64,000 nt of DNA from Candidatus Spongiisociaceae bacterium. Lineage in GTDB: Bacteria; Actinomycetota; Acidimicrobiia; Spongiisociales; Spongiisociaceae. Shown one piece after another: positions 20,641 to 61,268 of this stretch (its first letter is position 1; each line of letters begins with the position of its first letter). Under the pieces are notes generated by a model that did not search any database, was not told the origin of the DNA, and saw only the letters and a program-made list of their open reading frames with translations. The stretch is from the NCBI GenBank assembly GCA_965202665.1, contig OZ241841.1:992001-1056000 (forward strand). Direction: 5' to 3'. The translations under genes and the position numbers were made by a program.

Positions 20641-21837
20641 ATGGAAGATGTTAGAGGGGAAGACGGGGCCGAACCCACTTGGCGGGAGGTCAACGACAAA
20701 TTTTCCGACTTGGGGGCCCGGCTGGGATCTCATTTCACCGGCGGCGAGGACGAAGAAACCGGCGAGGTCAAAGACGCCTGGGACGAGTTCAAATCCGCCT
20801 CCCGGCACTTGGGCAAAGCCCTGAGCATGACGGTGCGCGACCCGCAAGTGCGGGCCGGAGCGGGGGAAGCCTTCGGTTCGCTGGCCGGGGCCGCCGGGTC
20901 GGCGGTGAAAACGGCCGCCAAAACCACCGCCGACGCCACCCGCCGATTGGCGCAACGGGTGGGGGGCGGCCCGGCGGAGCAACCGATCGTCTCCTGCGAA
21001 TGGCTGGCCTCCCGGCTGACCGACTCCGCGGTGCGAATCGTTGACACCCGCTGGTACCTGGCCGACGTGGAACAGGGCAAACGGGAATACGAAGAGTCCC
21101 ACCTGCCGGGGGCGGTCTTCTTGGACGTGGAGGAGCATCTGTCGGCTTCGGAAGGGGCCGGCCGCCATCCGCTCCCCGACCGGGCTGAGTTCGCCGCCCT
21201 GCTCGGCTCCCGCGGCATCGGACCCGGTCACCACGTGGTGGTCTACGACCAGGGGCCGGGGGCGATCGCCGCCCGGCTGTGGTGGATGTTGCGCCACCTG
21301 GGACACCAACAGGTGAGCGTGCTGGACGGAGGGTTCGCCCGCTGGCGGGAAGGCGGCTACATAACCACCGCAACGGTCCCCGTCCCGGAACCGGCGGTCT
21401 ACCAACCGGAGAGCGGACCCACCGCCGTCATGGACCGCGACGAACTGCTCTCCCGACTGGGCGCGGTGCAAGTAATCGACGCCCGCGAGGCGGAACGTTA
21501 CCGGGGGGAGGAGGAAACGGTGGACGCCGCAGCCGGGCACATCCCCACCGCTCTCTCCGCCCCCTTCCACGGCAACCTGACCGAAGAGGGAACTTTTCTA
21601 AGCCCCGACGATTTGGCCGCCCGGTTCGCCGCCCTGGGTCTGGATCCGGAGCAACCCATCATCAGTTCCTGCGGCAGCGGGGTTACCGCCTGTCACAACA
21701 TCCTGGCCCTGCGGATGGCCGGCTTCCCGGAACCGATCCTTTACCCCGGGTCGTGGTCGGACTGGTCGGCTTCGTCCCTGCCGGCGGCCACCGGCCCCGA
21801 ACCCGGCTCCCCGCCCGCGGACGACCCCGGCGACTGA
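20641..21837 (+). CDS. 3-mercaptopyruvate-type sulfurtransferase with ~110-aa N-terminal extension
   Basis: HLPGA, GRHPLP, LDGG, GHIP, active-site CGSGVT, YPGSWSDW. Confidence 0.88.
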   Translation: MEDVRGEDGAEPTWREVNDKFSDLGARLGSHFTGGEDEETGEVKDAWDEFKSASRHLGKALSMTVRDPQVRAGAGEAFGSLAGAAGSAVKTAAKTTADATRRLAQRVGGGPAEQPIVSCEWLASRLTDSAVRIVDTRWYLADVEQGKREYEESHLPGAVFLDVEEHLSASEGAGRHPLPDRAEFAALLGSRGIGPGHHVVVYDQGPGAIAARLWWMLRHLGHQQVSVLDGGFARWREGGYITTATVPVPEPAVYQPESGPTAVMDRDELLSRLGAVQVIDAREAERYRGEEETVDAAAGHIPTALSAPFHGNLTEEGTFLSPDDLAARFAALGLDPEQPIISSCGSGVTACHNILALRMAGFPEPILYPGSWSDWSASSLPAATGPEPGSPPADDPGD

Positions 21838-21916
21838 CCCGCAACAGGTTTTGGGGGCAACCGATCACCCAACCCGCTACCCCGCCGCCGGAGACCCCCG
21901 ACGCGGAGTTTTTGAC

Positions 21917-21943
21917 TTGACAAATTGGGGGGGGGGGTAGCGT
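21917..21943 (+). promoter_or_regulatory. Putative phase-variable promoter 1
   Basis: TTGACA-AATT-G11-TAGCGT; spacer 15 bp. Confidence 0.8.
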
Positions 21944-22011
21944 TTTGCATATGCCGCCGGTTCGCGGCTCCGGTTGGCGAAACTGATATGCGGAGGAAGG
22001 GAGGTTGGGTG

Positions 22012-25000
22012 ATGCGGCGGTTGGCGGTGTTGGCGTTGGCGGCGGGGTTGGTCTGGTCGGTGTTGCCGGTTGCGCCGGCGGCGGTGGGGGCGCAGACGGT
22101 GATTACGCTCAGCGTGGTCGATGAGTCGAATACCAATACCGTGGTGACTTCGTTGGGGGAGGACGATGCTGTCGGGGGTAAGTTTTTTCATTTGAAGGCA
22201 ACGGCGGCTTCGGCGTCTAGTTCTCCTGTGACGGTGACGGTTACTCGGGGAGGCAACGCTACTGTGAGTGATCTGACATTGATCCCACTGGGTTTTGGTT
22301 TTAGGGCTGAGTGCCGCAGTGGTGATGCGTGTATGAGCTCTACCGTCTTTCTTAATGTTACCATTCCAGCGAACCAGACAAGCGGTACAACTATTTTTAG
22401 TTGGCCTGTTTATACTCGGTCAGATACGATTACGGAGGATCATGAGACCATCACCTTTTCCGGTACCGCTTCTGGGTATACGGTGAATGGGACTACTTTG
22501 ACTATCACCGATCAGGACCGGGCGATTAAGGTGGATATTCCATCGGATTTTTTAGTAATGCCGGAGAGAGGAGAAGGTGAATCTGTGAATCGAAACGGTC
22601 GTCATGTCTATTGGCCTAATTCAAGGAAGGCTGTTTTGGGTGGGGTTACGAATGGTGTGTTCACTGCTTCTACTTCTTCTACGTACAGCCAAAATTTGTC
22701 GGGTATGCGATTGAAGGTGGTAAGTGGGACGGCTACGCAATCTGAAATTTTGAGTACTAATATCGATGTCTTTCACGAGCATAATTCTGATAGTAATACT
22801 CCTTTGCAAGCTACGATAACCGCCGGATCTCTTTCCGGAGATTTTATTGGTATATATAATACCAATTCTACTTTGTCTTTGGGAATTGTAAGTGATAGGA
22901 GGGTGGAGCCGGATGAGACTTTTTATCTTAGGGTGGACCGTCCGGCGGGTTGGACCTGGTTTCAGACCCCGATAACTGTTAAGGATGCGAATCGTCGGGT
23001 GAGATTGACGGTGGATACCGATAGTGAGGCTATGGGGAATCAGGATGTGTTAACGGAAGGGGATTCCGGTTCGGGGGTGTCGGTGTCGGCTAATTTTTGG
23101 AACGCGACGTCTTCGGTGTTGCCTTCGGCGACGGCGGTGACGTTGTCGGCGGCGGCGGAGACTCCGGCGGGGGCGGGTAAGGCGACGGCGGCTGATTTCA
23201 CGTATGCTCCGTCCACGGCGAATACGATTTCTTTCCCGGCTCAGAGTGTCACTGCTTCGGGTTCGGCGACGTTGGCTGGTTTGACGATTACTGATGATTC
23301 GGTTGTGGAAGGCCCGGAAACTTTTCTGGTGAACGGGTCGTCGGTGCTGGGAACCGCTACTAAGGCGGACACGTTGACTATATATGACAATGACGCTGAT
23401 ATTGAGTTGGAGGTGTCCCCGTCATCGGTGGAGGAGCAGGCGGGGGCGCAACAGGTTACGGTGACCGCCCGGTTTAAGGGTTCATCGTCGATTTTGACAT
23501 CGGCTACTGATGTGGCGGTGACGGTAGCGGGGGCGGGCGGGGCGACTTTGTCGTCGTGTCCGGTGTCTGGCGGGAATGATGCTTGTACCAGTTTGACGGG
23601 TAATGCGACCACGATTTCCATTCCGGCGGGCGGGACGTCGGAGAGCGCAACTTTTACGGTGACGGTTCCTGATGATAGTACGAGCGAGTCGGGGGAGAAG
23701 TTGACGCTGTCGGGGACGGCGTCGGTGGGCGGGACAGCGGTGTCGGTGGACTCGGCGGATCTACCAATTATCGACGCGGGAACGCGGGTGGATTTGTCTT
23801 TGCATGAGGCGGTTAGCGGGGAAGCGGCGCTGTCCGGGATAGCGGAGGATGGAGGGGCGCGGACGGTGCGGGTGAAAGCCACCGCTGCGACGGCGGTGCC
23901 TTCGCAGACCACCATCAGCGTAAACGTGGGTGCTATGGGGGGGACGGCGACGGTGGGGATGTGCACGGGGAGCGGCCAGTCCCGGTCTTGTTCGAGCGGC
24001 GACTACGACCGGGGGTCGGCGACGGTGGACGTGACGATCCCATCGGGCGGTACGTCGGCAACCTCGGACGTGACCATTACTCCCCTTTCGGACACAACCG
24101 CGGAGGGGGAGGAAACCATCCGGTTCGCCGGTTCCGCTACCGGGTTTACGGTGTTTCCCGCGGATTTGAAGATCACGGAAACGATAGAGTTGACAGTTAG
24201 CCAAACTTCGGTGAGTGAGGGAGCGGCCAACGCCGGTGCGGCGTCGGTGACGGCTTCTTATGCGGGGGCGTCTACTTCGACGCTGACTACGGCGACGGTT
24301 GTTACGTTGTCGTTCGGGGCGGGCGAGGGAGCGGAGGCGGCGGATTTCACCGCTCCCGGAGCGGGTAGTGAGATCACGGTGAGCATCCCGGGTTCTACCA
24401 CTTCTAGTTCGGCGGTTGCTTTGACTGGTTTGCTAGTTGTAGGGGATAGGATCGCGGAGGGGGAGGAGAAGATTGATGTCGGGGGGACGGCGGATGGGTT
24501 TGTGGTGAGCGGTACGGAGCTGACGATAGCCGATGATGATCTGGGGGTGACTTTAACGGCGGACACCGATAGCGGCACGAACGGGGAGCAGCAGACTTTA
24601 CCGGAGGGTGAGGCGGCGGCGGTGCGGGTGCGGGCCCGGTTCACTTCCGCTACCACCAACGATTTGGCCGCTGTTTATGAGATTCAGGTTACCGCCGGGG
24701 AGGGTTCTCCGGTGTCGGCGACCGGCGGAGGTGTTGATTTCACCGCCCCGGGCGCGGCGGCGACGGTTACCATACCCGCCGGAACCGCCCTGCAAAGCGG
24801 TTGGGTGAATCTAACCGGCCTGTCGGTGGCGGATGACACGATAGCGGAAGGATCGGAAACTTTTCTCATCACCGGTACCGCTACAGGCGGGACGGTGGTT
24901 GCGGAGACGGTAACCATCGTCGATGACGATGTGGATGTGTCTTTGTCGGCGTCTCCGGCGGAGGTGGTGGAACAGGCGACGGCGCATCAGATAACGGTAA

Positions 25001-28000
25001 CCGCCCGTTTTCAGGGGGCCACGTCGGTGTTGTCGGCGGCTACTCCGGTGACGGTAACGGTCGGGTCGGCGGACACCAGCGGCGCGACGGTGCATACCGC
25101 GGTATGTCCTATGATGATGACAATTACAGCGGATGTGTGCACCAACCAGACGAACAATCAGTTCACGGTCAGTATCCCCGCCGGGGGTGTCAGTGGTTCG
25201 GGTTCTTTTCAGCTGCGGGCCCGCGTCGATGGGGACGACGCCGAGGGTATCGAGTATTTGAAACTGACCGGTTCTACTTCTATAGGTCAGGTGGCGTCCG
25301 CTCAGATGGGCGTTTTCGATCCGGGCCGGGCGTTTACCTTGTCTTTCCATGAGCCGACCAGCGGCGACCCGGCCCTGTCGGGGATAACCGAGGACGGGGG
25401 GGCGCAGACGGTGCGGGTGAAAGCCACCCTCGGCGCACCCGCTTCATCGTCCGCCACAGTGACCGTAAACGTAGGAACCGCAGGCGGAACCGCCACTTTG
25501 GGACCAATCGGGGATTACACCCGCGGGAGCGCTACGGCGACTATCACCATCAACAGCGGCGAAACCAGCGGAACGGCCGATGTTGTGCTCACTCCCCGCA
25601 ATGAGGGAACGGTGGAGGGGGCGGAAACCATCCGTTTCACCGCTTCCGCCACCGGCGGGTATCTGCCCGCGGTGGCTGATTTGTCGATTCTGGAAACGAT
25701 CACTTTGGCTCTCAGCCAGTCCACGGTGGATGAAAGAGACGCCAACGCGGGAGCGGTAACCGTTACCGCCTCTTTCGCGGGGGCGTCCAGTTCCTCCCTC
25801 ACCCAAGCTACGGATGTAACTTTGTCGTTTGGGGCGGGTGAGAACGCGGAGGCGGCGGATTTCACCGCCCCCGGCGCGGCGGTGACGGTGACCATTCCCG
25901 CTGGTTCTACTAGTAGTTCGGCGGTTGCGTTGAGCGGTTTGCTGATTACCGGGGATACTATCGCGGAGGACGCGGAGAGTATCAACATCGACGGTACCGC
26001 CGGGGGGTTCGCGGTTAGCGGAACGACGCTGGTCATCACCGACGACGACCTAGACGTAACCCTGACGGCGGACACTGACAGCGGAGAAAACGGGAATCAG
26101 AAAACCCTGTCGGAGGGCGGGACGGTTGCGGTGCGGGTACAAGCCGCGTTCGCCACCGCCACCAGCAACGACATTGGGTCTGCTTTGCAAGTACGCGTAA
26201 CCGCGGAGGCTTTATCACCGGCGTCGGCCGAGGCGGGGGGAATCGATTTCACCCCTCCCGCCACCCCGGTTACGGTATCCATCCCCGCCGGGCAAACCCA
26301 GAGTGCCTGGACGAACCTGACCGGACTGGCGGTAACGGACGATGCGGTAACCGAGCTGGCGGAAACGTTCAGAATCGCGGGGACGTCGGTGAACAGCGGC
26401 GTGGGGATTACCCCGGATACGTTGACTATCGGAGCCAGCGACACCGCTTTGGAGGTAACCGCCTCGCCGGGGTCGGTGACGGAAAGCACCAGCGCCCACA
26501 ACATAACGGTCACCGCCGGGTTCGCCGGAGCCACCTCCTCCGTACTAGCAACCAACACCGACGTAACGGTAACGGTAGCGGCCGGGGACACCAACGGGGC
26601 CACGGTGGCGACAGCATGCTCTCAGTCGATGACCGAAGATGTGTGCACCGACCAGACGGGCAACTCGTTCACTATCCGCATCCCGGCTGGTCAGCACTAT
26701 CACACGGGCTCGTTTCAGCTGACAGCCCGAGTAGACACAGACCCGGAAACTACTGCGGAAACGGTGAAAATCAGCGGCTCGGCCACTGTCGCCGGAACAG
26801 CCGCCTCCGACACCGCCACCATCAACATAGCCGACAGCGGCATCACCCTCGCCCTAACCAACGCCTCCGATAGCAGCGCCCTGTCCGCGTTGGATGAAAA
26901 CAGCGGAACAACCACCATACGGGTTACCGCCACCCTGCCGGTGGCAGCCCCCGCCGGGGGTGCGGTAGTGGGCCTGGAGATAGACGAGGACAGCACCGCC
27001 ACCGTAGATTCCAACCGCGTCTGGACCAACCGGGAAGACTACCGGGTGGTTTGGCCCGCCAAACCGAGCGGAACCCCCTCCGGATACGCCACCGGCATCG
27101 CCGTCCCCGCCGGCTCCACCACCGGCCACGCCGACATCCAAATCACCATCAACGACGACAACGTCGACGAGCCGGCGAGGAGGATAGAAATCAACGGCAG
27201 CCATGTAAACATCAACAGCGTGGATTATCACACGGTAGCCGCCGCTTTGACTCTGAACGACAACGACGACCCCCCCACCGCTATCACCCTCACCCTGCAC
27301 AGCACCCGCGCCGACAGCAGCGGGGAACACCTCACCCAAGCCCACGAAAACCAAGAAACCCGGGTACGGGTAATAGCCGCCTTCCAAGGAACCGCCACCC
27401 GCTCCGCCGCCACCTTCGTACCCATCGTAGTCGGCAAAACCGCTACCGGGGAAGCCACGCCGGGAACCGACTATCAAACAGTAAACACCTTCAACGTGCG
27501 AATCTCCGGCTACCAAACCCTAGGAGCCGACACCTTCCTCCTCAAAACCGACGGAACATACAACGACAACGCCTTCGAAGGACCGGAAACGCTAACCGTC
27601 GCCGGCGGAACCCTCGCCAATTTCACCATCGCGCAAGACACCCTCACCATCATCGACGACGACCTAACCGTCGCCCTCACCCTCACCCCCAACCAAGCAA
27701 CCGAAGGAACCACCAACACGTCCGTAACCTTGCGGGCCGCCTATCCGACCGGGGAGACCCTCCCCAACCCCCACACCATAACCCTGGGCCGCGGGGGAAC
27801 CGCCGCCGCCGCCGACTACACCGCCCCCGCCCTCACCCCCCTAACCATTCCCGCTAACCAAAACAGCGCCACCCGAACCCTCAGCCTGCCTATCACCGAC
27901 GACAGCATCGATGAACCAGACGAAACCATACAAATAACCGGAACCTCCGCCGGAATCGCCATCGAACCCGCCGTCTTCACCATCGAAGACAACGACGACC

Positions 28001-29118
28001 CACCCACCGGCATCACCCTCACCGTCAACCCCGCCAGCCTGCCCGAAGGACAAACCAACCGTCAGATCACCATCACCGCCCGGCTAGACGGCTCCACCAC
28101 CCGATCTGAAGCCACCCAAGTGGCTATAACCATCCCCGGCCCCGACAGCACCGCCACCCCCGCCGACTACCGAATCACCAACCAGCCCACCACCATAACC
28201 ATCCGCCCCGAAACACAATCCGGCTCCGGAACCTTTAACATAACCATCCCCAACACCGACGGCCCCGAACCAAACGAAACCCTCCAAATAACCGGCGCCG
28301 CCGTCGGGTTCACCACCATCACCCCCGCCGTCCTCACCATCCGCAACAGCGCACCTCCGTCGCCCCCAACCACCACACCAAACCCACCCACCGGAGGAGG
28401 TGGAGGAGGAGGGGGGGGCGGCGGTGGAGGCGCGCCTCCTCCGGCCGCGCCGCCCCCCGCGGGCGGAGGAGGTGGTGGCGGAGGAGGGGCCCCACCCCCC
28501 GCCGCGCCCGCACCGCCGACCGCGCCGGTGGTCTGCCAGGGTCGGTTCTGCGACGACGACGGCAGCGTCCACGAAGACAACATCGAGTTGATGGCCATAT
28601 GGGGAATAACCATCGGATGCGACGCCAACGACTCCACCAAATACTGCCCCAGCGCCCAAATCACCCGCAGGCAAATGGCCACCTTCATCTACCGCGCCGT
28701 CAACCCCCGCTGGCCCATCCAGTTCCCCACCGGCATAGAAATAGCCGACGTCCCCGCCGACGCCAGCTACCGCCCCTACGCCAACTGGCTAGTCAGCATC
28801 GGGGCGTTCCAACTAGACGACGGGAACTTCAACCCCCGGGGCATAGTAACCCGAGCCGACATGGCGGTCATGATGGTAGCCGCTTTCCCCCACATCCAAG
28901 CCGTATCCGAATCCCAAAACCTGTTCGCCGACACCGCCAACCTGGACGCGGCCGTGGTGCGGGCCATCGAAGGCATCGCCGAAAGCGAAGTGACCAGAGG
29001 ATGCACCACCACGCCCCCCCTCAGATACTGTCCCAACAACCCGGTAACCCGCGCCCAGATGGCATCCTTCTTCGTAAGAGTAATCAACCAAGCCCCCACC
29101 ACCACCGACGAATCATAA
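22012..29118 (+). CDS. Giant secreted Calx-beta/Ig-like repeat surface protein with C-terminal SLH-like domains, copy 1
   Basis: GGAGG RBS, signal peptide, repeated 'ADFTAP...ITDD..EG.ET' units, Pro/Gly linker, 'RFCDDDGSVHE..CPSAQITRRQMA..VTRAQMASF' SLH-like end. Confidence 0.88.
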   Translation: MRRLAVLALAAGLVWSVLPVAPAAVGAQTVITLSVVDESNTNTVVTSLGEDDAVGGKFFHLKATAASASSSPVTVTVTRGGNATVSDLTLIPLGFGFRAECRSGDACMSSTVFLNVTIPANQTSGTTIFSWPVYTRSDTITEDHETITFSGTASGYTVNGTTLTITDQDRAIKVDIPSDFLVMPERGEGESVNRNGRHVYWPNSRKAVLGGVTNGVFTASTSSTYSQNLSGMRLKVVSGTATQSEILSTNIDVFHEHNSDSNTPLQATITAGSLSGDFIGIYNTNSTLSLGIVSDRRVEPDETFYLRVDRPAGWTWFQTPITVKDANRRVRLTVDTDSEAMGNQDVLTEGDSGSGVSVSANFWNATSSVLPSATAVTLSAAAETPAGAGKATAADFTYAPSTANTISFPAQSVTASGSATLAGLTITDDSVVEGPETFLVNGSSVLGTATKADTLTIYDNDADIELEVSPSSVEEQAGAQQVTVTARFKGSSSILTSATDVAVTVAGAGGATLSSCPVSGGNDACTSLTGNATTISIPAGGTSESATFTVTVPDDSTSESGEKLTLSGTASVGGTAVSVDSADLPIIDAGTRVDLSLHEAVSGEAALSGIAEDGGARTVRVKATAATAVPSQTTISVNVGAMGGTATVGMCTGSGQSRSCSSGDYDRGSATVDVTIPSGGTSATSDVTITPLSDTTAEGEETIRFAGSATGFTVFPADLKITETIELTVSQTSVSEGAANAGAASVTASYAGASTSTLTTATVVTLSFGAGEGAEAADFTAPGAGSEITVSIPGSTTSSSAVALTGLLVVGDRIAEGEEKIDVGGTADGFVVSGTELTIADDDLGVTLTADTDSGTNGEQQTLPEGEAAAVRVRARFTSATTNDLAAVYEIQVTAGEGSPVSATGGGVDFTAPGAAATVTIPAGTALQSGWVNLTGLSVADDTIAEGSETFLITGTATGGTVVAETVTIVDDDVDVSLSASPAEVVEQATAHQITVTARFQGATSVLSAATPVTVTVGSADTSGATVHTAVCPMMMTITADVCTNQTNNQFTVSIPAGGVSGSGSFQLRARVDGDDAEGIEYLKLTGSTSIGQVASAQMGVFDPGRAFTLSFHEPTSGDPALSGITEDGGAQTVRVKATLGAPASSSATVTVNVGTAGGTATLGPIGDYTRGSATATITINSGETSGTADVVLTPRNEGTVEGAETIRFTASATGGYLPAVADLSILETITLALSQSTVDERDANAGAVTVTASFAGASSSSLTQATDVTLSFGAGENAEAADFTAPGAAVTVTIPAGSTSSSAVALSGLLITGDTIAEDAESINIDGTAGGFAVSGTTLVITDDDLDVTLTADTDSGENGNQKTLSEGGTVAVRVQAAFATATSNDIGSALQVRVTAEALSPASAEAGGIDFTPPATPVTVSIPAGQTQSAWTNLTGLAVTDDAVTELAETFRIAGTSVNSGVGITPDTLTIGASDTALEVTASPGSVTESTSAHNITVTAGFAGATSSVLATNTDVTVTVAAGDTNGATVATACSQSMTEDVCTDQTGNSFTIRIPAGQHYHTGSFQLTARVDTDPETTAETVKISGSATVAGTAASDTATINIADSGITLALTNASDSSALSALDENSGTTTIRVTATLPVAAPAGGAVVGLEIDEDSTATVDSNRVWTNREDYRVVWPAKPSGTPSGYATGIAVPAGSTTGHADIQITINDDNVDEPARRIEINGSHVNINSVDYHTVAAALTLNDNDDPPTAITLTLHSTRADSSGEHLTQAHENQETRVRVIAAFQGTATRSAATFVPIVVGKTATGEATPGTDYQTVNTFNVRISGYQTLGADTFLLKTDGTYNDNAFEGPETLTVAGGTLANFTIAQDTLTIIDDDLTVALTLTPNQATEGTTNTSVTLRAAYPTGETLPNPHTITLGRGGTAAAADYTAPALTPLTIPANQNSATRTLSLPITDDSIDEPDETIQITGTSAGIAIEPAVFTIEDNDDPPTGITLTVNPASLPEGQTNRQITITARLDGSTTRSEATQVAITIPGPDSTATPADYRITNQPTTITIRPETQSGSGTFNITIPNTDGPEPNETLQITGAAVGFTTITPAVLTIRNSAPPSPPTTTPNPPTGGGGGGGGGGGGGAPPPAAPPPAGGGGGGGGGAPPPAAPAPPTAPVVCQGRFCDDDGSVHEDNIELMAIWGITIGCDANDSTKYCPSAQITRRQMATFIYRAVNPRWPIQFPTGIEIADVPADASYRPYANWLVSIGAFQLDDGNFNPRGIVTRADMAVMMVAAFPHIQAVSESQNLFADTANLDAAVVRAIEGIAESEVTRGCTTTPPLRYCPNNPVTRAQMASFFVRVINQAPTTTDES

Positions 29119-29199
29119 CCCATCCCCCGCCCTCAGGTTTCCCCACCCCCCCCCCCCGGTTAAGGAATCCCCTCCGCTGGGTTATCACCTTCCCTGCGT

Positions 29200-29235
29200 C
29201 AGAGGGTTGCCGAATCCCCGGTCGGTGACCCTTTG
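29200..29235 (+). terminator. Imperfect hairpin after copy 1, possible terminator
   Basis: CAGAGGGTTGCCGA ... TCGGTGACCCTTTG pair with G-U wobbles; no U-tract. Confidence 0.35.
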
Positions 29236-29324
29236 GCATAGCTGTTGAGTATTGCTTCATCGGCTCTCCGCGCAGCCGAATTGGGCAAACGGCGGTTCAA
29301 CACCTCCGCTGACGCGGGGGCAAT

Positions 29325-29351
29325 TTGACAAATTGGGGGGGGGGGTAGCGT
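29325..29351 (+). promoter_or_regulatory. Putative phase-variable promoter 2
   Basis: TTGACA-AATT-G11-TAGCGT, identical to promoter 1. Confidence 0.8.
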
Positions 29352-29408
29352 TTATCGCAATTGGCCCTGATAAGGGCTGGGCCGGAAGCGAAAGATGGAG
29401 GTTGGGCG

Positions 29409-35400: not shown

Positions 35401-36566
35401 CACCCAGCGGCGTCACCCTCACCGTCAACCCCAACAGCTTACCCGAAGGGCAAACCAACCGCCAGATCACCATCACCGCCCGGCTGGACGGCTCCACCAC
35501 CCGATCTGAAACCACCCAAGTGGCTATAACCATCCCCGGCCCCGACAGCACCACCACCCCCGCCGACTACCAAATCACCAACCAGCCCACCACCATAACC
35601 ATCCGCCCCGCAACACAAACCGGTAGCGCAACCTTTAACATAACCATCCCCAACACCGACGGCCCCGAACCAAACGAAACCCTGCAGATAACCGGAACCG
35701 CCGCCGGATTCACCGCCATCACCCCCGCCGTCCTCACCATCCGCAACAGCGCACCCCCGCCCCCGCCCCCGCCGCCCCCAACCAGCACACCAAGCGCACC
35801 CACCGGAGGAGGAGGCGGAGGAGGTGGAGGTGGTGGAGGGGGCGGAGGAGGAGGGGGTGCGCCGCCGCCGGCCGCGCCGCCACCCGCCGCCGGAGGAGGA
35901 GCGCCGCCCCCCGCCGCAGGAGGGGCCCCGCCGCCTGCTGGGCCCGCCCCGCCGGTTGCGCCGCCGCCTGCGCCGGTGGCCTGTCAGGGTCGGTTCTGCG
36001 ACGACGACGGCAGCGTCCACGAACCCAACATCGCGTTGATGGCCGAATGGGGAATAACCATCGGATGCGACGCCAACGACCCCACCAAATACTGCCCCAG
36101 CGCCCAAATCACCCGCAGGCAAATGGCCACCTTCATCTACCGAGCCGTCAACCCCCGCTGGCCCATCCAAATCCCCACCGGCGTAACAATCAACGACGTC
36201 CCCGCCGACGCCAGCTACCGCCCCTACGCCAACTGGCTGGTAAGCATCGGAGCCTTCCAGCTAAACGACGGGAACTTCAACCCCCGGGGCATAGTAACCC
36301 GAGCCGACATGGCCGTCATGATGGTCGCCGCTTTCCCCCACATCCAAGCCGTAACCGAATCGCAAAACCTGTTCGCCGACACCGGCAATCTGGACGCAGC
36401 GGTAGTGCGGGCTATTGAAGGCATAGCCGAAAGCGAAGTAACCAGGGGATGCACCACCACGCCCCCCCTCAGATACTGTCCCAACAATCCGGTGACCCGC
36501 GCCCAGATGGCGTCCTTCTTCGTAAGAGTAATCAACCAAGCCCCCACCACCGACGGAGGATCATAA
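29409..36566 (+). CDS. Giant secreted Calx-beta/Ig-like repeat surface protein with SLH-like domains, copy 2
   Basis: Same architecture; highly similar to copy 1 outside the N-terminal ~330 aa. Confidence 0.88.
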   Translation: MRRLGLLALAAGLVLSLLPAVPAVMGATAITFSLVDPSGNAVTSVGEDSGSKVVRLRASVASAPSSNLQISISRLSGTATQGTRIDLNRFDPGRPPRLVCNSGDYCANEPWNLTIHRNQTSVTSTNFTIELRSDRITEEHETIIFSGSASGHTVTPATLTITDQDRAIKVNISQDTLRERGEGESMSGLYSHLFEPTITVVVGGVTNGVFTASTSSTYSQALAYSESNTTNMRILTQAGTAGVIDTVNQNAYYNTDVIVDHNSDGNDPIGVKIAANSVSGTTHFVSGGGSITYQLRIIRDGVVEPDEVVYVRLNTVPSGWTVFRTPITIQDANRRVSLTVDTDSEAMGNQDVLTEGDSGSGVSVSANFWNATSSVLPSATAVTLSAAAETPAGAGKATAADFTYAPSTANTITFPARNITASGSATLAGLTITDDSVVEGPETFLVNGSSVLGTATNADTLTIYDNDADIELEVSPSSVDEQAGSQPVTVTARFKGSSSILTTATNVTVSVAGSGGASLGSSCPTTSGQDACTNLTNNQMTVSIPAGATSGTGTFMVTVPDDSTSESGEKLTLSGSASVGGTAVTVESVDLPIVDVGTRVDLSLHEATAGEAALAGIAEGGGAETVRVKATAGAAVTSDTTISVNVGAAGGTATLGTCTGSGQSRSCTSGDYDREAATVDVTIASGETSGTADVTITPLSDTVAEGEETVQFTGSAAGFAVFPADLKITEEITLTLSQPSIGESATNAGAATVTAAFAGASTSELTGATVVTLSFGAGENAETLDFTAPGTAITVSIPASSTSSSATALTGLLITGDSIAEGEEKIDVGGTADGFVVSGTELTINDDDLGVTLTADTDSATGQQQTLPEGEAAAVRVRARFTSATTNDLTAAHTVQVTAEEGSPVSATSGGVDFTAPGTTATVTMPVGTALQSGWVNLTGLSVADDTIAEGAETFLITGTATGGTVVAETITIVDDDVDVTLSASPAEVVEQAADHQIMVTARFQGATSVLSAATPVTVTVGSADTSGATVHTAVCSTMTMTADVCTNQTNNQFTVSIPAGDVSGSGSFQLRARADGDDTEGIEYLKLTGSTSIGQVASAQMGVFDPGRAVTLSFHEPTSAAPALSGITEDGGAQTVRVKATLGAAASSSATVTVNVGAAGGTATLGATGDYTRGSATATITIASGQTSGTADVVLTPRNDGTIEGAETIRFTASATGGYLPAVADLSILETITLALSQSTVDERDANAGAVTVTASFAGASSSSLTQATDITLSFGAGENAEATDFTAPGTAVTVTIPAGSTSSSAVALSGLLITGDTIAEDAETIDIDGTAGGFAVSGTTLVITDDDLEVTLTADTDSMESGNQKTLSEGSTVAVRVRAAFTTATSNDIGSALQVRVTAEALSPASAEAGGIDFTPPATPVTVSIPAGQTQSAWTNLTGLLVTDDAVTELAETFRIAGTSVNSGVGITPDTLTIGASDTTLEVTASPGRVTESTDAHNITVTAGFAGATSSALTTNTDVTVTITAGDTNGATVATACSQTMTEDVCTDQTGNSFTIRIPAGQHHHTGSFQLTARVDTDAETTAETVKISGSATVAGTSTSDAATINIADSGIRLALTNPSNNNALSALAENSGTTTIRVTATLPVNAPTGGTVVGLEIDEDSTATADPNNVWTNREDYRVAWPSKPSGTPNDYNTGITIPAGTKTGYVDIDITVNDDNVDEPTRRIIIDGSHVTINNVDYHTVAAALTINDNDGPPTAITLTLHSTRADSSGEHLTQAHENEETRVRVVATFQGTATRSAATFVPIVVGKTGEATEGTDYQTVADFNVEIPGYQNSGTDTFLLKTDGTYNDATFEGPETLTVAGGTLAGFTIAQDTLTLIDDDLTVTLTLTPNQGTEGDTNTSVTLQAAYPTGETLPNPHTITLALGGTAAAVDYTAPALTPLTILANQNSATRTLSLPITDDSIDEPDETVQITGTSAGITITPATFTIKDNDDPPSGVTLTVNPNSLPEGQTNRQITITARLDGSTTRSETTQVAITIPGPDSTTTPADYQITNQPTTITIRPATQTGSATFNITIPNTDGPEPNETLQITGTAAGFTAITPAVLTIRNSAPPPPPPPPPTSTPSAPTGGGGGGGGGGGGGGGGGGAPPPAAPPPAAGGGAPPPAAGGAPPPAGPAPPVAPPPAPVACQGRFCDDDGSVHEPNIALMAEWGITIGCDANDPTKYCPSAQITRRQMATFIYRAVNPRWPIQIPTGVTINDVPADASYRPYANWLVSIGAFQLNDGNFNPRGIVTRADMAVMMVAAFPHIQAVTESQNLFADTGNLDAAVVRAIEGIAESEVTRGCTTTPPLRYCPNNPVTRAQMASFFVRVINQAPTTDGGS

Positions 36567-36637
36567 CCCCCCTGGTTCAAAAGGTGGCCAAATTGGGGAA
36601 ACGGCGGTTCAACGCCTTGCTGGCGCGGGGGGTTGAT

Positions 36638-36664
36638 TTGACAAATTGGGGGGGGGGGTAGCGT
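36638..36664 (+). promoter_or_regulatory. Putative phase-variable promoter 3
   Basis: TTGACA-AATT-G11-TAGCGT, identical to promoters 1 and 2. Confidence 0.8.
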
Positions 36665-36723
36665 TTTTCGTAATCGGCCCCGTTTACGGGCTGGACCGGA
36701 AAGCGAAGGATGGAGGTTGGGTG

Positions 36724-39700
36724 ATGCGACGGCTGGGGCTGTTGGCGTTGGCGACGGGAATGGTCCTGTCGGTGTTGCCGGTTGCGCCTGCGGAGGTGGG
36801 GGCGCAGACGACGGTTACGCTCAGTTGGGTTGATCCTTCGGGCAACGCGGTGACCTCGGTGGGGGAGGACATCGGTTCGAGGATCTTGCGGTTGAAGGCG
36901 TCGGTGACCTCGGCGCCATCCTCCGATTTGCGGGTGTTGCTTGATAGTACGCCGGGCGGTACCGCCTCTGGAACAACGTGGCGTGATGCTAGAACCTTCG
37001 AGGATCGTAACTTAGGGCGTCCTCCGAGGATTGTTTGCAATGGTGCTGATTACTGTGTTAACGTACCTTATTCAGTAACAATTAGCGCGGGCACTACTAC
37101 CGGTACTAGTTCTAATACTACATTCTATCTGAAGTCGGACAGGATTACGGAGGATCATGAGACCATCCTGATCAGTGGCACCTTTGCCGGGTATACGGTG
37201 ACTGACGCTACTTTGAGGATTACCGATCAGGACCGGGCAATTAAAGTGGATGTAGCGTCAGATTATTTAGTACTGCGGGAGAGAGGAGAAGGTGAATCTA
37301 ATAATCGAAACTATGGTCATATCTATTGGGATAGTCCGAATGCTATTGTGGGTGGGGTGACGAATGGTGTGTTCACTGCTTCTACTTCTTCAACATACAA
37401 CGCAAGGTTGTCGGGAATGCGGCTAAGATTTGACAGCGGGACAGCTACGGTATCCAACTGGGATAACAGTGCTAGCTATGATGTCTATCATCAGCATGGT
37501 CCTGCTGACGATGTAATGAATGCAGCGATAAACGCTAGATCTATTTCCGGGGCTGTCGCTGGCGATACCCCGGGTATTCGACTTGCTTTGGGAATAATCG
37601 CTGATAGGAAGGTGGAGATGGATGAGATATTTTATCTTAAGGTGGACGTTCCGCAGGGTTGGACCCAGTTTAGAACTCCGATAACTGTTAAGGATGCGAA
37701 TCGTCGGATGGGTTTAACGGTGGATACTGATAGTGAGGCTATGGGGGATCAGGATGTGTTGACGGAGGGTGATCCTGGTTCGGGGGTGTCGGTGTCGGCT
37801 AGTTTTTGGAACGCAACGCAGTCGCAGGTTTCTTCGGCGACGACGGTGACGTTGTCGGCGACGGCGCAGACTCCGGCGGGGGCGGGGAAGGCCACATCGG
37901 CTGATTTCACGTATGCTCCGTCCACGGCGAATACGATTTCTTTCCCGGCTGGAAGCGCGACTGCTTCGGGTACGGCGACGTTGGCGGGGTTGACGGTTAC
38001 CGATGATATGGTTGTGGAGGGGCCGGAAACCTTCTATGTGGGTGGGTCGTCGGCGCTGGGAACGGCTAGGGGGTCTGTGTTGACGATTTATGACGATGAC
38101 GCTGATATTGAGTTGGAGGTGTCTCCGTCGTCGGTGGAGGAGCAGGCGACAGCGCAGCGGGTTACGGTGACGGCCCGGTTTAAGGGGTCGTCGTCGGTTT
38201 TGACGTCGGCGACTGATGTGGCGGTGACGGTGGCGGGGTCGGGTGGGGCTTCTTTGGGGTGTCCGGCGAATACGAACGATGCTTGTACTAGTTTGACTAA
38301 TAATCAGATGACGGTGTCTATTCCGGCGGGTGCGACGTCGGGGAGCGACACGTTTATGGTGACGGTTCCTGATGATAGTACGAGCGAGACGGGGGAGAAG
38401 TTGACGGTGTCGGGGGCGGCGTCGGTGGGTGGGACAGCGGTGTTGGTGGAGTCGGCGGATTTGCCGATTATCGACGCGGGGACGCGGGTGGATTTGTCTT
38501 TGCATGAGGCGACGGCGGGGGAGGCGGCGTTGGCGGGGATAGCGGAGGATGGGGGGGCGCGGACGGTGCGGGTGAAGGCTACTGCGAGGGCGGCGGTGAC
38601 CTCGGACACGACCATTAGCGTGAACGTGGGGGCAACGGGGGGTACGGCGACTTTGGGGACATGCTCGGGGAGCGGTCAGTCCCGGTCGTGCGCGAGCGGT
38701 GATTATGATCGGGGGTCGGAGACGGTGGATGTGACGATTGCGTCGGGTGAGACTTCCGGGACGGCGGATGTGACGATCACTCCTTTGTTGGATACGGTGG
38801 CGGAGGGGGAGGAAACTGTTCGATTTACCGGTTCCGCTTCTGGGTTCGCGGTGTTTCCCGTTGATTTGAAAATTACTGAAGAGATTACGTTGACGCTTAG
38901 CCAGTCATCGGTTGGCGAGGGCGCAACGAATGCGGGTGCGGCGTCGGTGACGGCGGCGTTTGCGGGAGCGACTACTTCAGAGTTGAGCGGGGCGACGGTT
39001 GTTACGTTGTCGTTTGGGGCGGGCGAGAACGCGGAGGCGCAGGATTTCACCGCTCCGGGCACGGCGTTGACGTTGAGCATCCCGGCTTCTTCCACTTCTA
39101 GTTCCGCTACCGCTCTAACCGGTTTGCTGATTACGGGGGATGCGATCGCGGAAGGGGAGGAGAAAATCGATGTTGGGGGGACGGCGGAGGGGTTTGGGGT
39201 GAGCGGAACGGAGTTGGCGATAACCGACGATGATATGGGGGTTACTTTGACGGTGGACACGGACAGCGCGTCCGGGGTGCAGAGAAACCTGTCGGAGGGT
39301 GAGGCGGCGGCGGTGCGGGTGCGTGCCGCTTTCACTAGCGCCACTTCCAATGGTTTAGGATCCGCTCTGCAAATAAGCGTCACCGCGGGGGCTTCGTCGC
39401 CGGCGTCGGCGACTGGAGGGGGTGTTGATTTCACAGCTCCCGGTACGGCGGTGGTGTTGTCTATACCAACCGGGTCGACCAGCTTGCAAAGCAGCTGGGC
39501 GGATCTCACCGGGTTGTCGGTAGCGGATGATACGGTAGCGGAAGGGTCGGAGACGTTTCTCGTCACCGGTACCGCAACAGGCGGCGCGACGGTGGCTTCA
39601 GACACGATAACTATCGTTGATGATGACGTTGACGTGACTTTGTCGGCGTCTCCGGCGGAGGTGGTGGAGCAAGCGGCGGCGCATCAGATAACGGTAACCG

Positions 39701-42700
39701 CCCGTTTCCAGGGGGCCACCTCGGTGCTGTCAGCGGCGACTCCGGTAACAGTGACAGTCGCCCCAGCGGACACCAACTGGGCAGGGGTACAGACGGCGGC
39801 GTGTCCTATTTCGTCATCGGCGGATGTGTGCACCGACCAAACGAACAATCAGTTCACGATCAGCATCCCCGCCGGGGACGTCAACGCCTCGGGTTCCTTC
39901 CAACTGCAAGCCCGCGTCGACGGGGATAACACCGAGGATATCGAATACTTGAAACTCACCGGTGCTACTTCCATAGGCTCGGTAGCCCCCGCTCAGATGG
40001 GCGTTTACGACCCAGACCGGCAGATTACTTTGTCCTTCCATCAGGCCTCCAGCGGCGACCCTGCCCTGTCGGGCATTACCGAGGACGGGGGCGCGCAGAC
40101 GGTACGGGTGAAAGCCACCCTCGGCGGAAACGCCGCGTCGGCTACCACAGTGACCGTAAACGTGGGGGCCGCAGGCGGAACCGCCACCCTGGGATCCACC
40201 GGGGATTACACCCGCGGGAGCGCCACCGCGACTATCACCATCAACAGCAACCAAGCCGATGGAACAGCCGACGTTGTGCTCACTCCCCGCAATGACGGAA
40301 CAGCCGAAGGAGCGGAGACCGTCCGTTTCACCGCCTCCGCTACTGGGTATCTGCCCGACTCCGCCGACCTGTCCATCACTGAAGCCATCCAGTTGACGGT
40401 CAGCCGGTCTTCGGTGGGTGAGGGAGCGGGAAACGCGGGAGCGGCGTCGGTGACGGCTTCCTTCGCGGGGGCGTCCAGCTCCTCACTCACCCAACCAACG
40501 GATGTCACCTTGACCTTCGGGGCGGGCGAGGACGCGGAAGCGGCGGATTTCACCGCCCCGGGCGCCGCGCTAACGGTGAGCATCCCCGCTGGTTCCACCA
40601 CCAGCTCGGCTACCGCCTTGACCGGTTTGCTGATCACGGGGGATGCCATCGCCGAGGGAGCGGAGAAGATCGATATCGGGGGCACGGCGGGGGGCTTCCG
40701 GGTGAGCGGAACGGAGCTGGGGATAGCGGACGACGACTTGGGGGTGACTGTAGAAGCGGATACGGACAGCGTAATGAACGGGGAGCAAAAAAACCTGTCG
40801 GAAGGAACCACCCCCGCGGTGCGGGTACGGGCCAAGTTCACCACCGCTACCTCCAATGATTTGGGATCCGCTCTGCAGGTGCGCGTCGCCGCCGGGGTTT
40901 CGTCGCCGCAGTCGGCCGTGGGCGGGGGAACAGATTTCACCGCTCCCGCTACGCCGGTTACGGTGTCCATTCCCACCGGTCCAAACAGTGTGGAAAGCGC
41001 ATGGGCGAACCTGACAGGACTTGCGGTTACGGACGATGCGGTGACCGAGCCGGCGGAAACCTTTGCCATCACCGGTACCGTTTCCGGGAGAAGCGACGTG
41101 ACGATAACTTCGGATACGTTGACTATCGGGGCCAGCGACACCGCTTTGGAGGTTGCCGCGTCGCCGGGGACGGTGCATGAAAGCGGTTCTGCTCATACGA
41201 TAAGGGTGACCGCCGGGTTCGCCGGAGCGACCTCATCGGCTTTGTCGGCGGGCACCGCGGTGACGGTAGCGGTAGCGGCCGGGGACACCGACGGAGCCAC
41301 GGTGGCGGCGTCATGTTCTCAGTCGATGACCGAAGATGTTTGCACCGATCAGACGGGCAACTCATTTACCGTCACCATCCCCGCCGGGCAAACCAGCCAT
41401 ACGGGAACGTTCCATCTGACCGCCCGGGACGACAACGCAGCGGAAGGTGTGGAAAAGGTGAAAATCAGCGGCTCGGCCACCGTCGCCGGAGAATCAGAAT
41501 CGGATTCCGACACTATTAACGTTGTGGACAGCGGGATCACCCTTTCCTTAACCAACGCCTCCAATAACAACGCGGTGTCCGCGTTATCTGAGAGCAGTGC
41601 GTCTACCACTATACGGGTGACCGCTACTCTGCCCGCTGGTACGACCGTCCCTTCCGGGGGGGTGGTGGTAGGTCTGAACATAGCCGGTACCGCTACTGCG
41701 GACTCCGACAACGTTTGGACGGAAGAAGAGGACTACCGAATCAGCCTGCCCCCCAAACCGGCTTCCACTCCTGATGGGTACGCCACCGGCGTCACCATCG
41801 CGCAGGGGGAAACCAGCGGCGCCGCCGATATTACCATCACGGTGAACGATGACAACGTAGACGAACCGGACAAAACCATAACCGTCAACGGCAGCACGGT
41901 AACCATCAGCAGCGTCGTCTACCACACGGTAGCCGCTGCGTTGACTATCAGCGACAACGACGACCCGCCCGCCAACATCGACCTCGCCCTCCACCGCGAC
42001 GACGAGGGCGACATCGGGGCGGCGCTCACCCAAGTACCTGAAGGAGGCGAAGACGTAGTGTGGGTGCGGGCTTCTTTTCAGGGAACCGTCACCCGCTCCG
42101 CCGCTACTTCCGTGCCGATTGTGGTCGGTAAAGCCGCCGGGGAATCCACACCAGGAACTGACTATCAAACGGTAAGCGCCTTCAACGTGGTGATCGACCC
42201 CTACCAAACCAGCGGAACCGGCACCTTCACCCTCAAAACCGACGGAACATATGACGACGAAAACCTTGAAGGGAACGAAACGTTGACCGTCGCCGGCGGA
42301 ACCCTCGCCGGTTTCACCATCGGGCAAGACACCCTCACCATCATCGACGACGAAACCATCACCCTCACCCTCACCCCAGACGAGGTGAATGAAGGAGACG
42401 CGGTCGCGGCCGCAACCCTGCGAGCCGCCTACCCGGGCGCGGCCCTCACCACCTCCCAAACCATAAACCTGGCCCTCGGAGGAGACGCCGTCGCCGGAAC
42501 CGACTACACCGCCCCCACCCTCACCACACTGGAAATCCCCGCCAACCAAAACAGCGCCACCCTCCCCACCTTCGCCCTGCAAACCACCGAGGACAACATC
42601 GCCGAAGGAGACGAAATTTTGCAAATAACCGGAACGGTCGCCGGATACGCCGTCACCCCCGCCGCTTTCACCATCAAAGACGACGACAACCCACCCACTA

Positions 42701-43803
42701 GCATCCAAATCAGCCTCTCCGCAAACAGCTTGGCCGAAACTACCAGCGCTACCGCTACCATCGTCACCCGCTTACCCGCCGGGTCCGACACGCTCCCCAC
42801 CGACACCGCCGTCGCTTTCACCCTCAGCGGAAACGCCATCCGCAACTCCGACTATCGAATAAACAGCCTGACCGCCGTCATCCCCGCCGGGCAAACCCAA
42901 GCCCCCAACCTCACCATAACCATCATCAACGACAACACCCCAGAACAAGCTGAACGAATCGTCCTCACCGCCACCACCCCAGCCGGATTAACCCCCAACC
43001 CCACCACCCTCACCCTCACCATCCCCGCCAACGACGCCCAGCCCCCCGCCCCACCCCCCGCTCCCAGCGGAGGAAACCCGCCCGCCGGAGGCGGCGGAGG
43101 AGGAGGAGGTGGCGGCGGAGGAGGAGGAGGCGGGGGAGGAGGAGGCGGCGCCCCAGCCCCACCGCCTCCAGCCGCCCCGCCCGCCGCGCCCCCACCCGCC
43201 CCCGCGCCTCCCCCCGAACCGGCATGCCAAGGACGATTCTGCGACGAGGACGGCAGCGTCCATGAAGCCAACATCGAACGGATAGCCGGATGGAGAATCA
43301 CCCTCGGCTGCGACGCCACCGACTCCACCAAATACTGCCCCGGAGCCCAAATCACCCGCAGGCAAATGGCCGCCTTCCTCCACCGCGCCGTCAGCCAACG
43401 CTGGACCATCCAAAACCCCCAAAACATAGAAATCAACGATGTTCCAGCCGATGCCTGGTATCGCACCTACGCCGAATGGGGCGTCTCCGTAAACGCCTTC
43501 GAACTCACCGACGGAAACTTCAACCCCGGCGGAGTGGTAACCCGGGCTGACATGGCCATCATGATGATCGCCGCCTTCCCCCACCTCCAATCCGTGGAAG
43601 AACCCCAAAACCTCTTCCAAGACGCAACAGGACTGGACCCGACGATAATACGGGCCATCGAAGGAATGTACGGCAGAAGCGTAACCAGAGGCTGCACCAC
43701 CACCCCCCTCAACTACTGCCCGAACAAACCGGTAACCAGAGCGCAGATGGCCTCCTTCTTCGTCCGCGCCGTCAACCTCGCCCCAGCCGCCACCGGCTCA
43801 TAA
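36724..43803 (+). CDS. Giant secreted Calx-beta/Ig-like repeat surface protein with SLH-like domains, copy 3
   Basis: Same architecture; more divergent C-terminal half. Confidence 0.88.
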   Translation: MRRLGLLALATGMVLSVLPVAPAEVGAQTTVTLSWVDPSGNAVTSVGEDIGSRILRLKASVTSAPSSDLRVLLDSTPGGTASGTTWRDARTFEDRNLGRPPRIVCNGADYCVNVPYSVTISAGTTTGTSSNTTFYLKSDRITEDHETILISGTFAGYTVTDATLRITDQDRAIKVDVASDYLVLRERGEGESNNRNYGHIYWDSPNAIVGGVTNGVFTASTSSTYNARLSGMRLRFDSGTATVSNWDNSASYDVYHQHGPADDVMNAAINARSISGAVAGDTPGIRLALGIIADRKVEMDEIFYLKVDVPQGWTQFRTPITVKDANRRMGLTVDTDSEAMGDQDVLTEGDPGSGVSVSASFWNATQSQVSSATTVTLSATAQTPAGAGKATSADFTYAPSTANTISFPAGSATASGTATLAGLTVTDDMVVEGPETFYVGGSSALGTARGSVLTIYDDDADIELEVSPSSVEEQATAQRVTVTARFKGSSSVLTSATDVAVTVAGSGGASLGCPANTNDACTSLTNNQMTVSIPAGATSGSDTFMVTVPDDSTSETGEKLTVSGAASVGGTAVLVESADLPIIDAGTRVDLSLHEATAGEAALAGIAEDGGARTVRVKATARAAVTSDTTISVNVGATGGTATLGTCSGSGQSRSCASGDYDRGSETVDVTIASGETSGTADVTITPLLDTVAEGEETVRFTGSASGFAVFPVDLKITEEITLTLSQSSVGEGATNAGAASVTAAFAGATTSELSGATVVTLSFGAGENAEAQDFTAPGTALTLSIPASSTSSSATALTGLLITGDAIAEGEEKIDVGGTAEGFGVSGTELAITDDDMGVTLTVDTDSASGVQRNLSEGEAAAVRVRAAFTSATSNGLGSALQISVTAGASSPASATGGGVDFTAPGTAVVLSIPTGSTSLQSSWADLTGLSVADDTVAEGSETFLVTGTATGGATVASDTITIVDDDVDVTLSASPAEVVEQAAAHQITVTARFQGATSVLSAATPVTVTVAPADTNWAGVQTAACPISSSADVCTDQTNNQFTISIPAGDVNASGSFQLQARVDGDNTEDIEYLKLTGATSIGSVAPAQMGVYDPDRQITLSFHQASSGDPALSGITEDGGAQTVRVKATLGGNAASATTVTVNVGAAGGTATLGSTGDYTRGSATATITINSNQADGTADVVLTPRNDGTAEGAETVRFTASATGYLPDSADLSITEAIQLTVSRSSVGEGAGNAGAASVTASFAGASSSSLTQPTDVTLTFGAGEDAEAADFTAPGAALTVSIPAGSTTSSATALTGLLITGDAIAEGAEKIDIGGTAGGFRVSGTELGIADDDLGVTVEADTDSVMNGEQKNLSEGTTPAVRVRAKFTTATSNDLGSALQVRVAAGVSSPQSAVGGGTDFTAPATPVTVSIPTGPNSVESAWANLTGLAVTDDAVTEPAETFAITGTVSGRSDVTITSDTLTIGASDTALEVAASPGTVHESGSAHTIRVTAGFAGATSSALSAGTAVTVAVAAGDTDGATVAASCSQSMTEDVCTDQTGNSFTVTIPAGQTSHTGTFHLTARDDNAAEGVEKVKISGSATVAGESESDSDTINVVDSGITLSLTNASNNNAVSALSESSASTTIRVTATLPAGTTVPSGGVVVGLNIAGTATADSDNVWTEEEDYRISLPPKPASTPDGYATGVTIAQGETSGAADITITVNDDNVDEPDKTITVNGSTVTISSVVYHTVAAALTISDNDDPPANIDLALHRDDEGDIGAALTQVPEGGEDVVWVRASFQGTVTRSAATSVPIVVGKAAGESTPGTDYQTVSAFNVVIDPYQTSGTGTFTLKTDGTYDDENLEGNETLTVAGGTLAGFTIGQDTLTIIDDETITLTLTPDEVNEGDAVAAATLRAAYPGAALTTSQTINLALGGDAVAGTDYTAPTLTTLEIPANQNSATLPTFALQTTEDNIAEGDEILQITGTVAGYAVTPAAFTIKDDDNPPTSIQISLSANSLAETTSATATIVTRLPAGSDTLPTDTAVAFTLSGNAIRNSDYRINSLTAVIPAGQTQAPNLTITIINDNTPEQAERIVLTATTPAGLTPNPTTLTLTIPANDAQPPAPPPAPSGGNPPAGGGGGGGGGGGGGGGGGGGGGAPAPPPPAAPPAAPPPAPAPPPEPACQGRFCDEDGSVHEANIERIAGWRITLGCDATDSTKYCPGAQITRRQMAAFLHRAVSQRWTIQNPQNIEINDVPADAWYRTYAEWGVSVNAFELTDGNFNPGGVVTRADMAIMMIAAFPHLQSVEEPQNLFQDATGLDPTIIRAIEGMYGRSVTRGCTTTPLNYCPNKPVTRAQMASFFVRAVNLAPAATGS

Positions 43804-43836
43804 CCCCCCCCAATCCGAAGAGCCACAAAAGCCTCC

Positions 43837-43996
43837 ACCGACCAAGTCACCGACCAAGTAAGTCCCCAAAACCGTACAAGTCACCGACCAAGTCAACCCC
43901 CAAACCGACCAAGTCACTGACCAAGTAAGTCCCCAAAACCGTACAAGTCACCGTACAAGTCACCGACCAAGTAAGTCCCCAAACCGACCAAGTCAC
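43837..43996 (+). repeat. Imperfect 12-bp tandem repeat (ACCGACCAAGTC; encodes TDQV/TVQV)
   Basis: About ten units interleaved with AGTCCCCAAA(A)-like spacers. Confidence 0.85.
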
Positions 43997-61258: not shown

Positions 61259-61268
61259 ATCAAGTACT

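Follow-up and report, generated by a model that had tools for sequence, protein, structure and literature searches.

Homopolymer switches are textbook devices of a few host-adapted pathogens. In Neisseria meningitidis, a poly-G tract (porA) or a poly-C tract (opc) lies between the -35 and -10 elements, where each base shifts the spacing and leads to graded expression. The run set of Campylobacter includes surface-structure genes, and most of its runs lie in coding regions; surface genes together with restriction-modification (R-M) genes form the classical signature of contingency loci. Among the poly-G contingency genes of Campylobacter jejuni, PMC4889913 mentions the phase-variable Type IIG enzyme cj0031c. 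In the vlp family of Mycoplasma hyorhinis, a poly-A tract is found in the promoter of each gene (Citti and Wise 1995, as cited in PMC10502178). The present study concerns a window of 64,000 nucleotides (nt) from a Candidatus Spongiisociaceae bacterium (contig OZ241841.1, positions 992001-1056000), in which three tandem genes for giant surface proteins are each preceded by a promoter-like motif containing a run of eleven G's (G11). These promoter-like poly-G spacers probably act as an expression switch driven by slippage, that is, by promoter-spacer phase variation.

The meningococcal genes appear to be the closest known systems in geometry, the homopolymer occupying the spacer between -35 and -10 there and between putative -35 and -10 elements here. 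They are single genes of a Gram-negative pathogen, whereas here one module stands before many paralogs of a sponge actinobacterium. In logic, the vlp family seems to be the closest known system. From what PMC10502178 relates, these are also paralogous surface-protein genes; they have separate transcripts, each with its own promoter homopolymer, and the proteins are in addition variable in size through internal repeats. The tract is poly-A there and poly-G here, and the small lipoproteins of a wall-less pathogen contrast with SLH-anchored fibres of 2400 amino acids (aa). ON/OFF switching has been demonstrated for vlp and is proposed here, where 24 promoters are distributed over several gene families. 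The genome-wide pattern would most closely match the poly-G genes of Campylobacter, with long G runs throughout the genome, R-M genes included, and single-polypeptide R-M enzymes with runs in the coding sequence, as portrayed in PMC4889913. Unlike in Campylobacter, 24 of the 76 long runs lie in promoter spacers here, and run lengths are greater (11-16). According to PMC11706023, sponge-symbiotic Acidimicrobiia are enriched in R-M systems and in Calx-beta-rich 'eukaryote-like' proteins. Organism and gene classes are of the kind seen here, and these two classes are exactly those that carry the runs described below. The main text of that paper contains none of the words 'phase', 'SLH' and 'S-layer', and the connection with homopolymer runs goes beyond it; in a literature search, no paper was found that connects phase variation or homopolymer switches with sponge symbionts. 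New elements here are the allele series at one locus, the association of runs with R-M genes across the genome, the setting of repair genes and the double run in a sister genus.

The 27-mer TTGACAAATTGGGGGGGGGGGTAGCGT (TTGACAAATT-G11-TAGCGT) is present in exactly three copies in the window, starting at 21917, 29325 and 36638, and in none of 100 shuffles. Bare G9 words in the window are at chance level (13 against 11.8 expected; 44 of 100 shuffles reached 13). The distance from motif to start codon is 54-65 nt in all three genes. Each gene has its own putative promoter, in which G11 takes up most of the space from a perfect -35 element (TTGACA) to a -10-like TAGCGT. Replication slippage in the G run would change the spacing one base at a time, and transcription of each gene would go up or down independently. 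The motif would be the active promoter, strong with a spacer of 17 nt (G13) and weak with one of 15 nt (G11), and run length would differ among the cells of one population. The benefit would be a surface that changes, probably as a defence against phages or against uptake by the host. The elements of the array are as follows:

21917..21943, plus strand: promoter-like motif 1, consisting of TTGACA, AATT, G11 (21927-21937) and TAGCGT, with a spacer of 15 nt
22012..29118, plus strand: gene 1, 2368 aa
about 22084-23060: tip of gene 1, two Calx-beta-like variable domains, preceded by the signal peptide and followed by the repeat stalk
28393-28518: Pro/Gly linker of gene 1
28534-29115: Cys-rich stretch and SLH region of gene 1
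29146..29157, plus strand: C12 run, 28 nt past the stop codon of gene 1, without promoter context
29325..29351, plus strand: promoter-like motif 2, identical 27-mer, G11 at 29335-29345
29409..36566, plus strand: gene 2, 2385 aa, with the architecture of gene 1; tip 29481-30500, linker 35805-35975, SLH region 35982-36563
36615..36630, plus strand: terminator-like hairpin between gene 2 and promoter 3, on the basis of a consensus scan only
36638..36664, plus strand: promoter-like motif 3, identical 27-mer, G11 at 36648-36658
36724..43803, plus strand: gene 3, 2359 aa; tip 36796-37800, linker 43078-43215, SLH region 43225-43800

On the plus strand, the three long frames follow one another head to tail, in an array with a rhodanese gene upstream and rplA on its other side. 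All of them are open and give products of 2368, 2385 and 2359 aa. The starts are the ATG codons at 22012, 29409 and 36724, each 6-9 nt downstream of a GGAGG-type ribosome-binding site. The listed open reading frames (ORFs) begin upstream of these true starts, at TTG codons, and read through the G tract. This is of practical importance for annotation, as ORF callers misplace the starts into the G run and assemblies of short reads are interrupted at the motif. A preliminary description of this DNA had placed three paralogous genes behind identical poly-G motifs and had given them a signal peptide, a tip of two variable domains, a long conserved stalk, a Pro/Gly linker and an SLH-like C-terminus. 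The exact 27-mer is indeed found at all three genes, and all of these parts are present in each product.

The length of the tract at gene 1 was followed in other samples through per-sample contigs. The public runs containing the window (20 runs) are sponge or marine metagenomes, or runs of host organisms, and no RNA run is listed among them. Bridging contigs of 3.3-10.6 kb start in the unique upstream gene, cross the tract and enter gene 1. The lengths and contigs are given below, except for three samples that are taken up where the proposed switch is weighed:

X1, study P1: contig ending 4 nt past the tract, no gap; G11
X3, study P2: contig of 3313 nt, covering 21000-22029; one added G, hence G12
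X10, study P2: contig of 10,622 nt, covering 20800-22029; one added G, hence G12, plus A>T at 21923
X7, study P4: contig of 10,619 nt, covering 20800-22029; two added G's, hence G13
X16, study P6: contig without a bridge over the tract, length unreadable

The orthologous gene 1 site thus has three length alleles (11, 12 and 13) across samples from three studies, and a difference in tract length at one locus between cells or strains, seen here between samples, is one feature of promoter-spacer phase variation. The sequences of X7 and X10 show 8 differences per 1230 flank letters relative to the window (about 99.3% identity). Mixed +G signals at 21926 and 36647 inside single runs were also considered, and were rejected as evidence of within-sample heterogeneity, the motif being covered 5-13 times as deeply as its flanks. 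Another source of unequal run lengths could be errors of sequencing or assembly at long homopolymers, with true runs that are uniform. Long G runs are difficult on all platforms, the genomes are single contigs of unstated technology, and the lengths were taken from contigs only. Such errors are nevertheless a very improbable source of the alleles: the contigs that give distinct lengths have depths of 15-81, the runs occupy specific functional sites rather than random ones, and two further observations presented below, on non-G insertions and on reading frames in a sister genus, speak against errors as well.

Slippage-driven switching is also consistent with the repair genes of the organism. 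The window is part of a closed genome of 2.77 Mb (G000) with 64% G+C, 94% complete by marker genes, and no MutS_V or MutL domain was found in it, at that completeness. NucS is present. In Mycobacterium smegmatis, NucS leaves indels of 1-2 bp unrepaired, and the authors tie this indel blindness to homopolymer phase variation in mycobacteria, as stated in PMC11551767. Since no MutS/MutL was found and NucS is blind to indels of 1-2 bp, slippage is plausible in this genome.

The motif is not restricted to the array. With a looser pattern (TTGACA, 4-5 nt, G11-13, an optional T and TANNNT), 24 sites were found in the genome: 13 with G11, 10 with G12 and one with G13. The spacer is 15 nt long in eight of them, 16 nt in eleven and 17 nt in five. 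Non-G insertions (AATTA, an extra T) alter the spacer length too, which is another argument against errors at the G runs as the source of the variation. In the congener G001, 33 sites of this type were detected (19 with G11, 12 with G12, one with G14 and one with G15). The genes behind the 24 sites can be grouped as follows, with the SLH assignment of the 23 surface genes based on a scan of one representative per family:

family of the window genes: 11, including a five-gene array at 486-514 kb
proteins of about 4460 aa with C-terminal SLH: 3
proteins of about 1250 aa with N-terminal SLH and Ig-like and FG-GAP parts: 9
small ORF ahead of a methylase-HNH gene: 1

Of the 2.77 Mb in the genome, about 157 kb are behind this promoter class. 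The three genes, first regarded as a self-contained system, are therefore not a three-gene unit but members of a set with 24 promoters. Ordinary TTGACN..TANNNT sites upstream of genes, lacking poly-G, have a 17-nt spacer in 10 of 27 cases, 16-18 nt in 18 of 27 and 15 nt in none of the 27. Given this preference for 17 nt, the three window promoters, with their 15-nt spacers, would be weak, and only 5 of the 24 poly-G sites would be optimal.

Long G/C runs form a separate length class that is concentrated on SLH surface-protein and R-M genes. In the genome, 96 runs of 8 are followed by a single run of 9 and none of 10, and then by 24 runs of 11, 28 of 12, 14 of 13 and nine that are longer, giving 75 runs of at least 11 and 76 of at least 9. 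While 24 of the 76 belong to the promoter class, 52 are outside it. By crude gene calls and Pfam scans, 23 of these 52 lie in or next to genes with R-M domains, 3 in or next to DUF1156, DUF4007 or SNF2 genes, and 5 precede other surface-protein genes; the remaining 21 are unassigned. The R-M genes comprise four Type ISP genes (12 runs), five N6_N4 methylases, HsdM, HsdS, two Eco57I-like genes and one PLD/SNF2 nuclease. What defines a phasome, a separate class of long repeats on surface and R-M genes, is found in this genome, and the run class on both kinds of genes and the lack of any detected MutS/MutL support the view of the preliminary description that the promoters are prone to slippage. 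That view gains from G11, G12 and G13 across samples and from G11-13 and G11-15 among the paralogs of this genome and its congener, but the window itself has G11 at all its promoters.

Several features of these runs were noted in passing. At locus L029 (G000 1215758-1232851), three tandem Type ISP genes contain 11 runs of G11-13. In two of these genes the C-terminal specificity half (Type_ISP_C, 165-339) is encoded in a separate ORF, 0.9-1.4 kb past the main ORF; the gaps between main and separate ORFs contain 1-2 runs, and another run lies within about 30 nt of the main ORF end. A simple frameshift reading of this array was tried and could not be established, as none of 11 small ORFs lying between main and separate ORFs had a Pfam match. 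The locus may consist of run-gated or switched specificity modules. The floor of 11 is hard, with none of 10 and one of 9 among the 76 long runs of G000, and may reflect a mutational equilibrium or a functional limit. A G33 run at genome position 640404 ends a 604-aa ORF without Pfam match, and at 2473121 a T13 run is joined directly to a G12 run. The C12 run at 29146-29157 in the window has neither -35/-10 context nor a downstream gene on either strand, and is of the same length class as the promoter runs.

The products of the three genes are putative cell-surface proteins anchored by SLH domains, as indicated by the SLH scores, the signal peptide and a CsaB-type gene. SLH is above the Pfam cut-off in all three (28.8-32.8 bits against 20.8) and is the only domain to exceed it. 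All N-termini are signal-peptide-like (MRRLxxLALAAG...AxGA), and a CsaB-type pyruvyl transferase (PF04230) is encoded elsewhere in the genome, at position 539354 (111.8 bits). The C-terminal 150 or so residues align weakly to the SLH region of Sap, and whole-protein searches of NCBIfam and PDB sequences gave weak matches to the SLH region only. Overall identity is 82% between the products of genes 1 and 2, and 67-68% between gene 3 and either. The first 350 or so residues are the most divergent, with pairwise identities of 30-74% in 50-aa windows compared to mostly 70-98% in the remainder; in the pairwise comparison the gene 3 protein also diverges at residues 2050-2150 or thereabouts. An alignment of the tips with ten paralog tips from G000 and G001 shows two modules with variable loops and conserved cores (ITDQDR, GGVTNGVFTASTSSTY and VEPDEVFY). 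Tip homologs are metagenomic proteins only, 38 at E-values up to 1e-3.

The tip domains have, according to the structural model, a Calx-beta-type beta-sandwich fold. The predicted structure is all-beta (pLDDT 73.7), and its top PDB matches are the tandem CBD12 domains of NCX1 and CALX, with E-values of 6e-8 to 1e-6. TM-scores for these matches are low (0.24-0.33), which is expected when two domains are free in their relative orientation. In the Pfam search, Calx-beta (PF03160) had no match in genes 1 and 2 and a sub-threshold match in gene 3 (22.5 against 27 bits). The Calx-beta cut-off is exceeded (36.7 bits) by a larger SLH protein whose gene follows a promoter of this type, and many homologs carry PF03160. 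Each of the three proteins is predicted to form a long fibre, anchored to the wall, of about 20 beta-sandwich domains, with the C-terminal SLH anchor at one end and the two most variable domains distal. Such a string of domains suggests a fibre, the SLH anchor being the only part in common with S-layer proteins. The linkers, which precede the Cys-rich stretch and the SLH region, hold 13, 18 and 21 consecutive Gly residues. These Gly runs are encoded by GGN repeats, and slippage there could vary linker length and hence the reach of the fibre.

The three genes might instead encode co-expressed structural paralogs of an S-layer or fibre coat, whose tips have diverged for different ligands with no switching. 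Intact frames in all three, identical promoters and a gene 1 tip that is at least 99% conserved in the contigs of four runs (X1, X3, X4 and X5) would be in keeping with such a coat. This reading is hardly credible, as keeping all of the roughly 157 kb behind the promoter class switched on would be costly, and runs in coding regions, three length alleles and the failure to find indel-correcting repair weigh against it too. The conservation of the gene 1 tip is at the same time a point against strain-level variation under the proposed switch, and implies that the diversity is between paralogs rather than between strains. Of the variable tips claimed in the preliminary description, the difference among paralogs (30-74% identity) stands, but variation across runs was not seen for gene 1.

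The distribution among relatives extends the picture. A search of 39 further genomes from the family and order gave no site of the exact motif type; together with the 24 sites here and the 33 of G001, this is the outcome of the search of the genome and its relatives suggested earlier. Among the other genomes of the family, 19 of 24 have isolated G11 runs, and so does 1 of 16 genomes belonging to different families of the order; these runs are most frequent in the genus g4 (49 in G009 and 27 in G013). G009, from another genus of the family, has TTTGATTAATC-G11-TAGCAT-like sites in 4 of 16 fetched stretches. At loci L051, L053, L055 and L060 of G009, G11 is located inside the signal-peptide coding region of homologous giant surface-protein genes, and a second G11 is found in a promoter-like TTTGATTAATC..TAGCAT site about 200 nt upstream. 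The runs in the signal peptides are read as (R)GGG and are in frame in 4 of 4, although the four are not independent because the genes are homologous. Being in frame at the stated length, they also argue against sequencing or assembly errors. The rhodanese ortholog in G001 (84% identity) has no array adjoining it, and orthologous arrays are thus not available for a between-species comparison of run length. Among Joint Genome Institute (JGI) metagenome contigs scanned with TTGACAAATT-G11, 8 matches were obtained, none of them related and none with TAGCGT, with flanks that are AT-rich or unrelated.

A rather unlikely alternative, though one with several observations in its favour, is that the G run is a constant component of one strong promoter or regulator site that genes for wall-anchored surface proteins have in common, for instance a protein-binding or structure-forming element such as a G-quadruplex. 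Differences in length would then be tolerated noise, and expression would be constitutive or regulated by conditions, not stochastic. All 57 promoters of G000 and G001 have at least 11 G's, with G11 as the most frequent length in each species. The flanks, GGATTGAY TTGACA AAWY before the run and TAGCGTTT after it, are conserved ahead of unrelated gene families, as expected for a common regulator, and the sister genus retains the layout of hexamer, 4 nt, G11 and -10 element. A fixed element is difficult to reconcile with runs of the same class inside R-M and signal-peptide coding regions, in which a promoter element would have no function, with three length alleles at one orthologous site whose flanks are 99.3% identical, or with the failure to find indel-correcting mismatch repair.

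Slippage-driven switching of the three genes has to be weighed against further observations that go the other way. The mode and floor at G11 fit poorly with free slippage around an optimum of 13, and G11 may be a working state of the promoter. All three window promoters carry the same G11, so the assembly shows no difference between them. A consensus scan does not call the three poly-G sites promoters, because a 15-nt spacer is outside its window of 16-18 and TAGCGT matches TATAAT at 3 of 6 positions. The allele series was read from contigs, not from reads, and X3 and X10 come from one study. The contig of X4 (study P3) bridges the tract with no added G and one gap of unlisted kind, and those of X5 (P4) and X12 (P5) end at the tract, leaving its length unreadable. 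Mixed lengths within one run are not assignable to a locus, because short contigs of paralogous promoters pile up at the motif.

On a wider scale, the chances are about even that this sponge-associated lineage of Acidimicrobiia runs a large contingency repertoire, with a portable poly-G promoter on two dozen giant SLH fibres, runs gating most R-M enzymes and, in a sister genus, a second run in the signal peptide. In that case the two gene classes that mark sponge symbiosis would be those that the symbiont varies stochastically, probably against phages and host uptake. A non-pathogenic, uncultured sponge actinobacterium would then use the homopolymer device at a larger scale, with 24 promoters and 76 long runs in 2.77 Mb. 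It would provide a concrete hypothesis, testable with reads, of how a symbiont copes with phages and a phagocytic host. The term 'antigenic' variation, applied to the array in the preliminary description, is a poor fit to a sponge host.

Two other features of the window lie outside the array. Immediately 3' of gene 3, an imperfect tandem array at 43836-43996 is composed of units of 12, 34 and 67 nt built on CAAGTCACCGACCAAGT, and is followed by a short region and then by rplA on the minus strand. Further downstream, a low-GC island at 60245-62480 has 40% G+C compared to about 65% around it, and contains minus-strand genes with ParA/AAA_31 ATPase and Schlafen AlbA_2 / HATPase_c_4 assignments.

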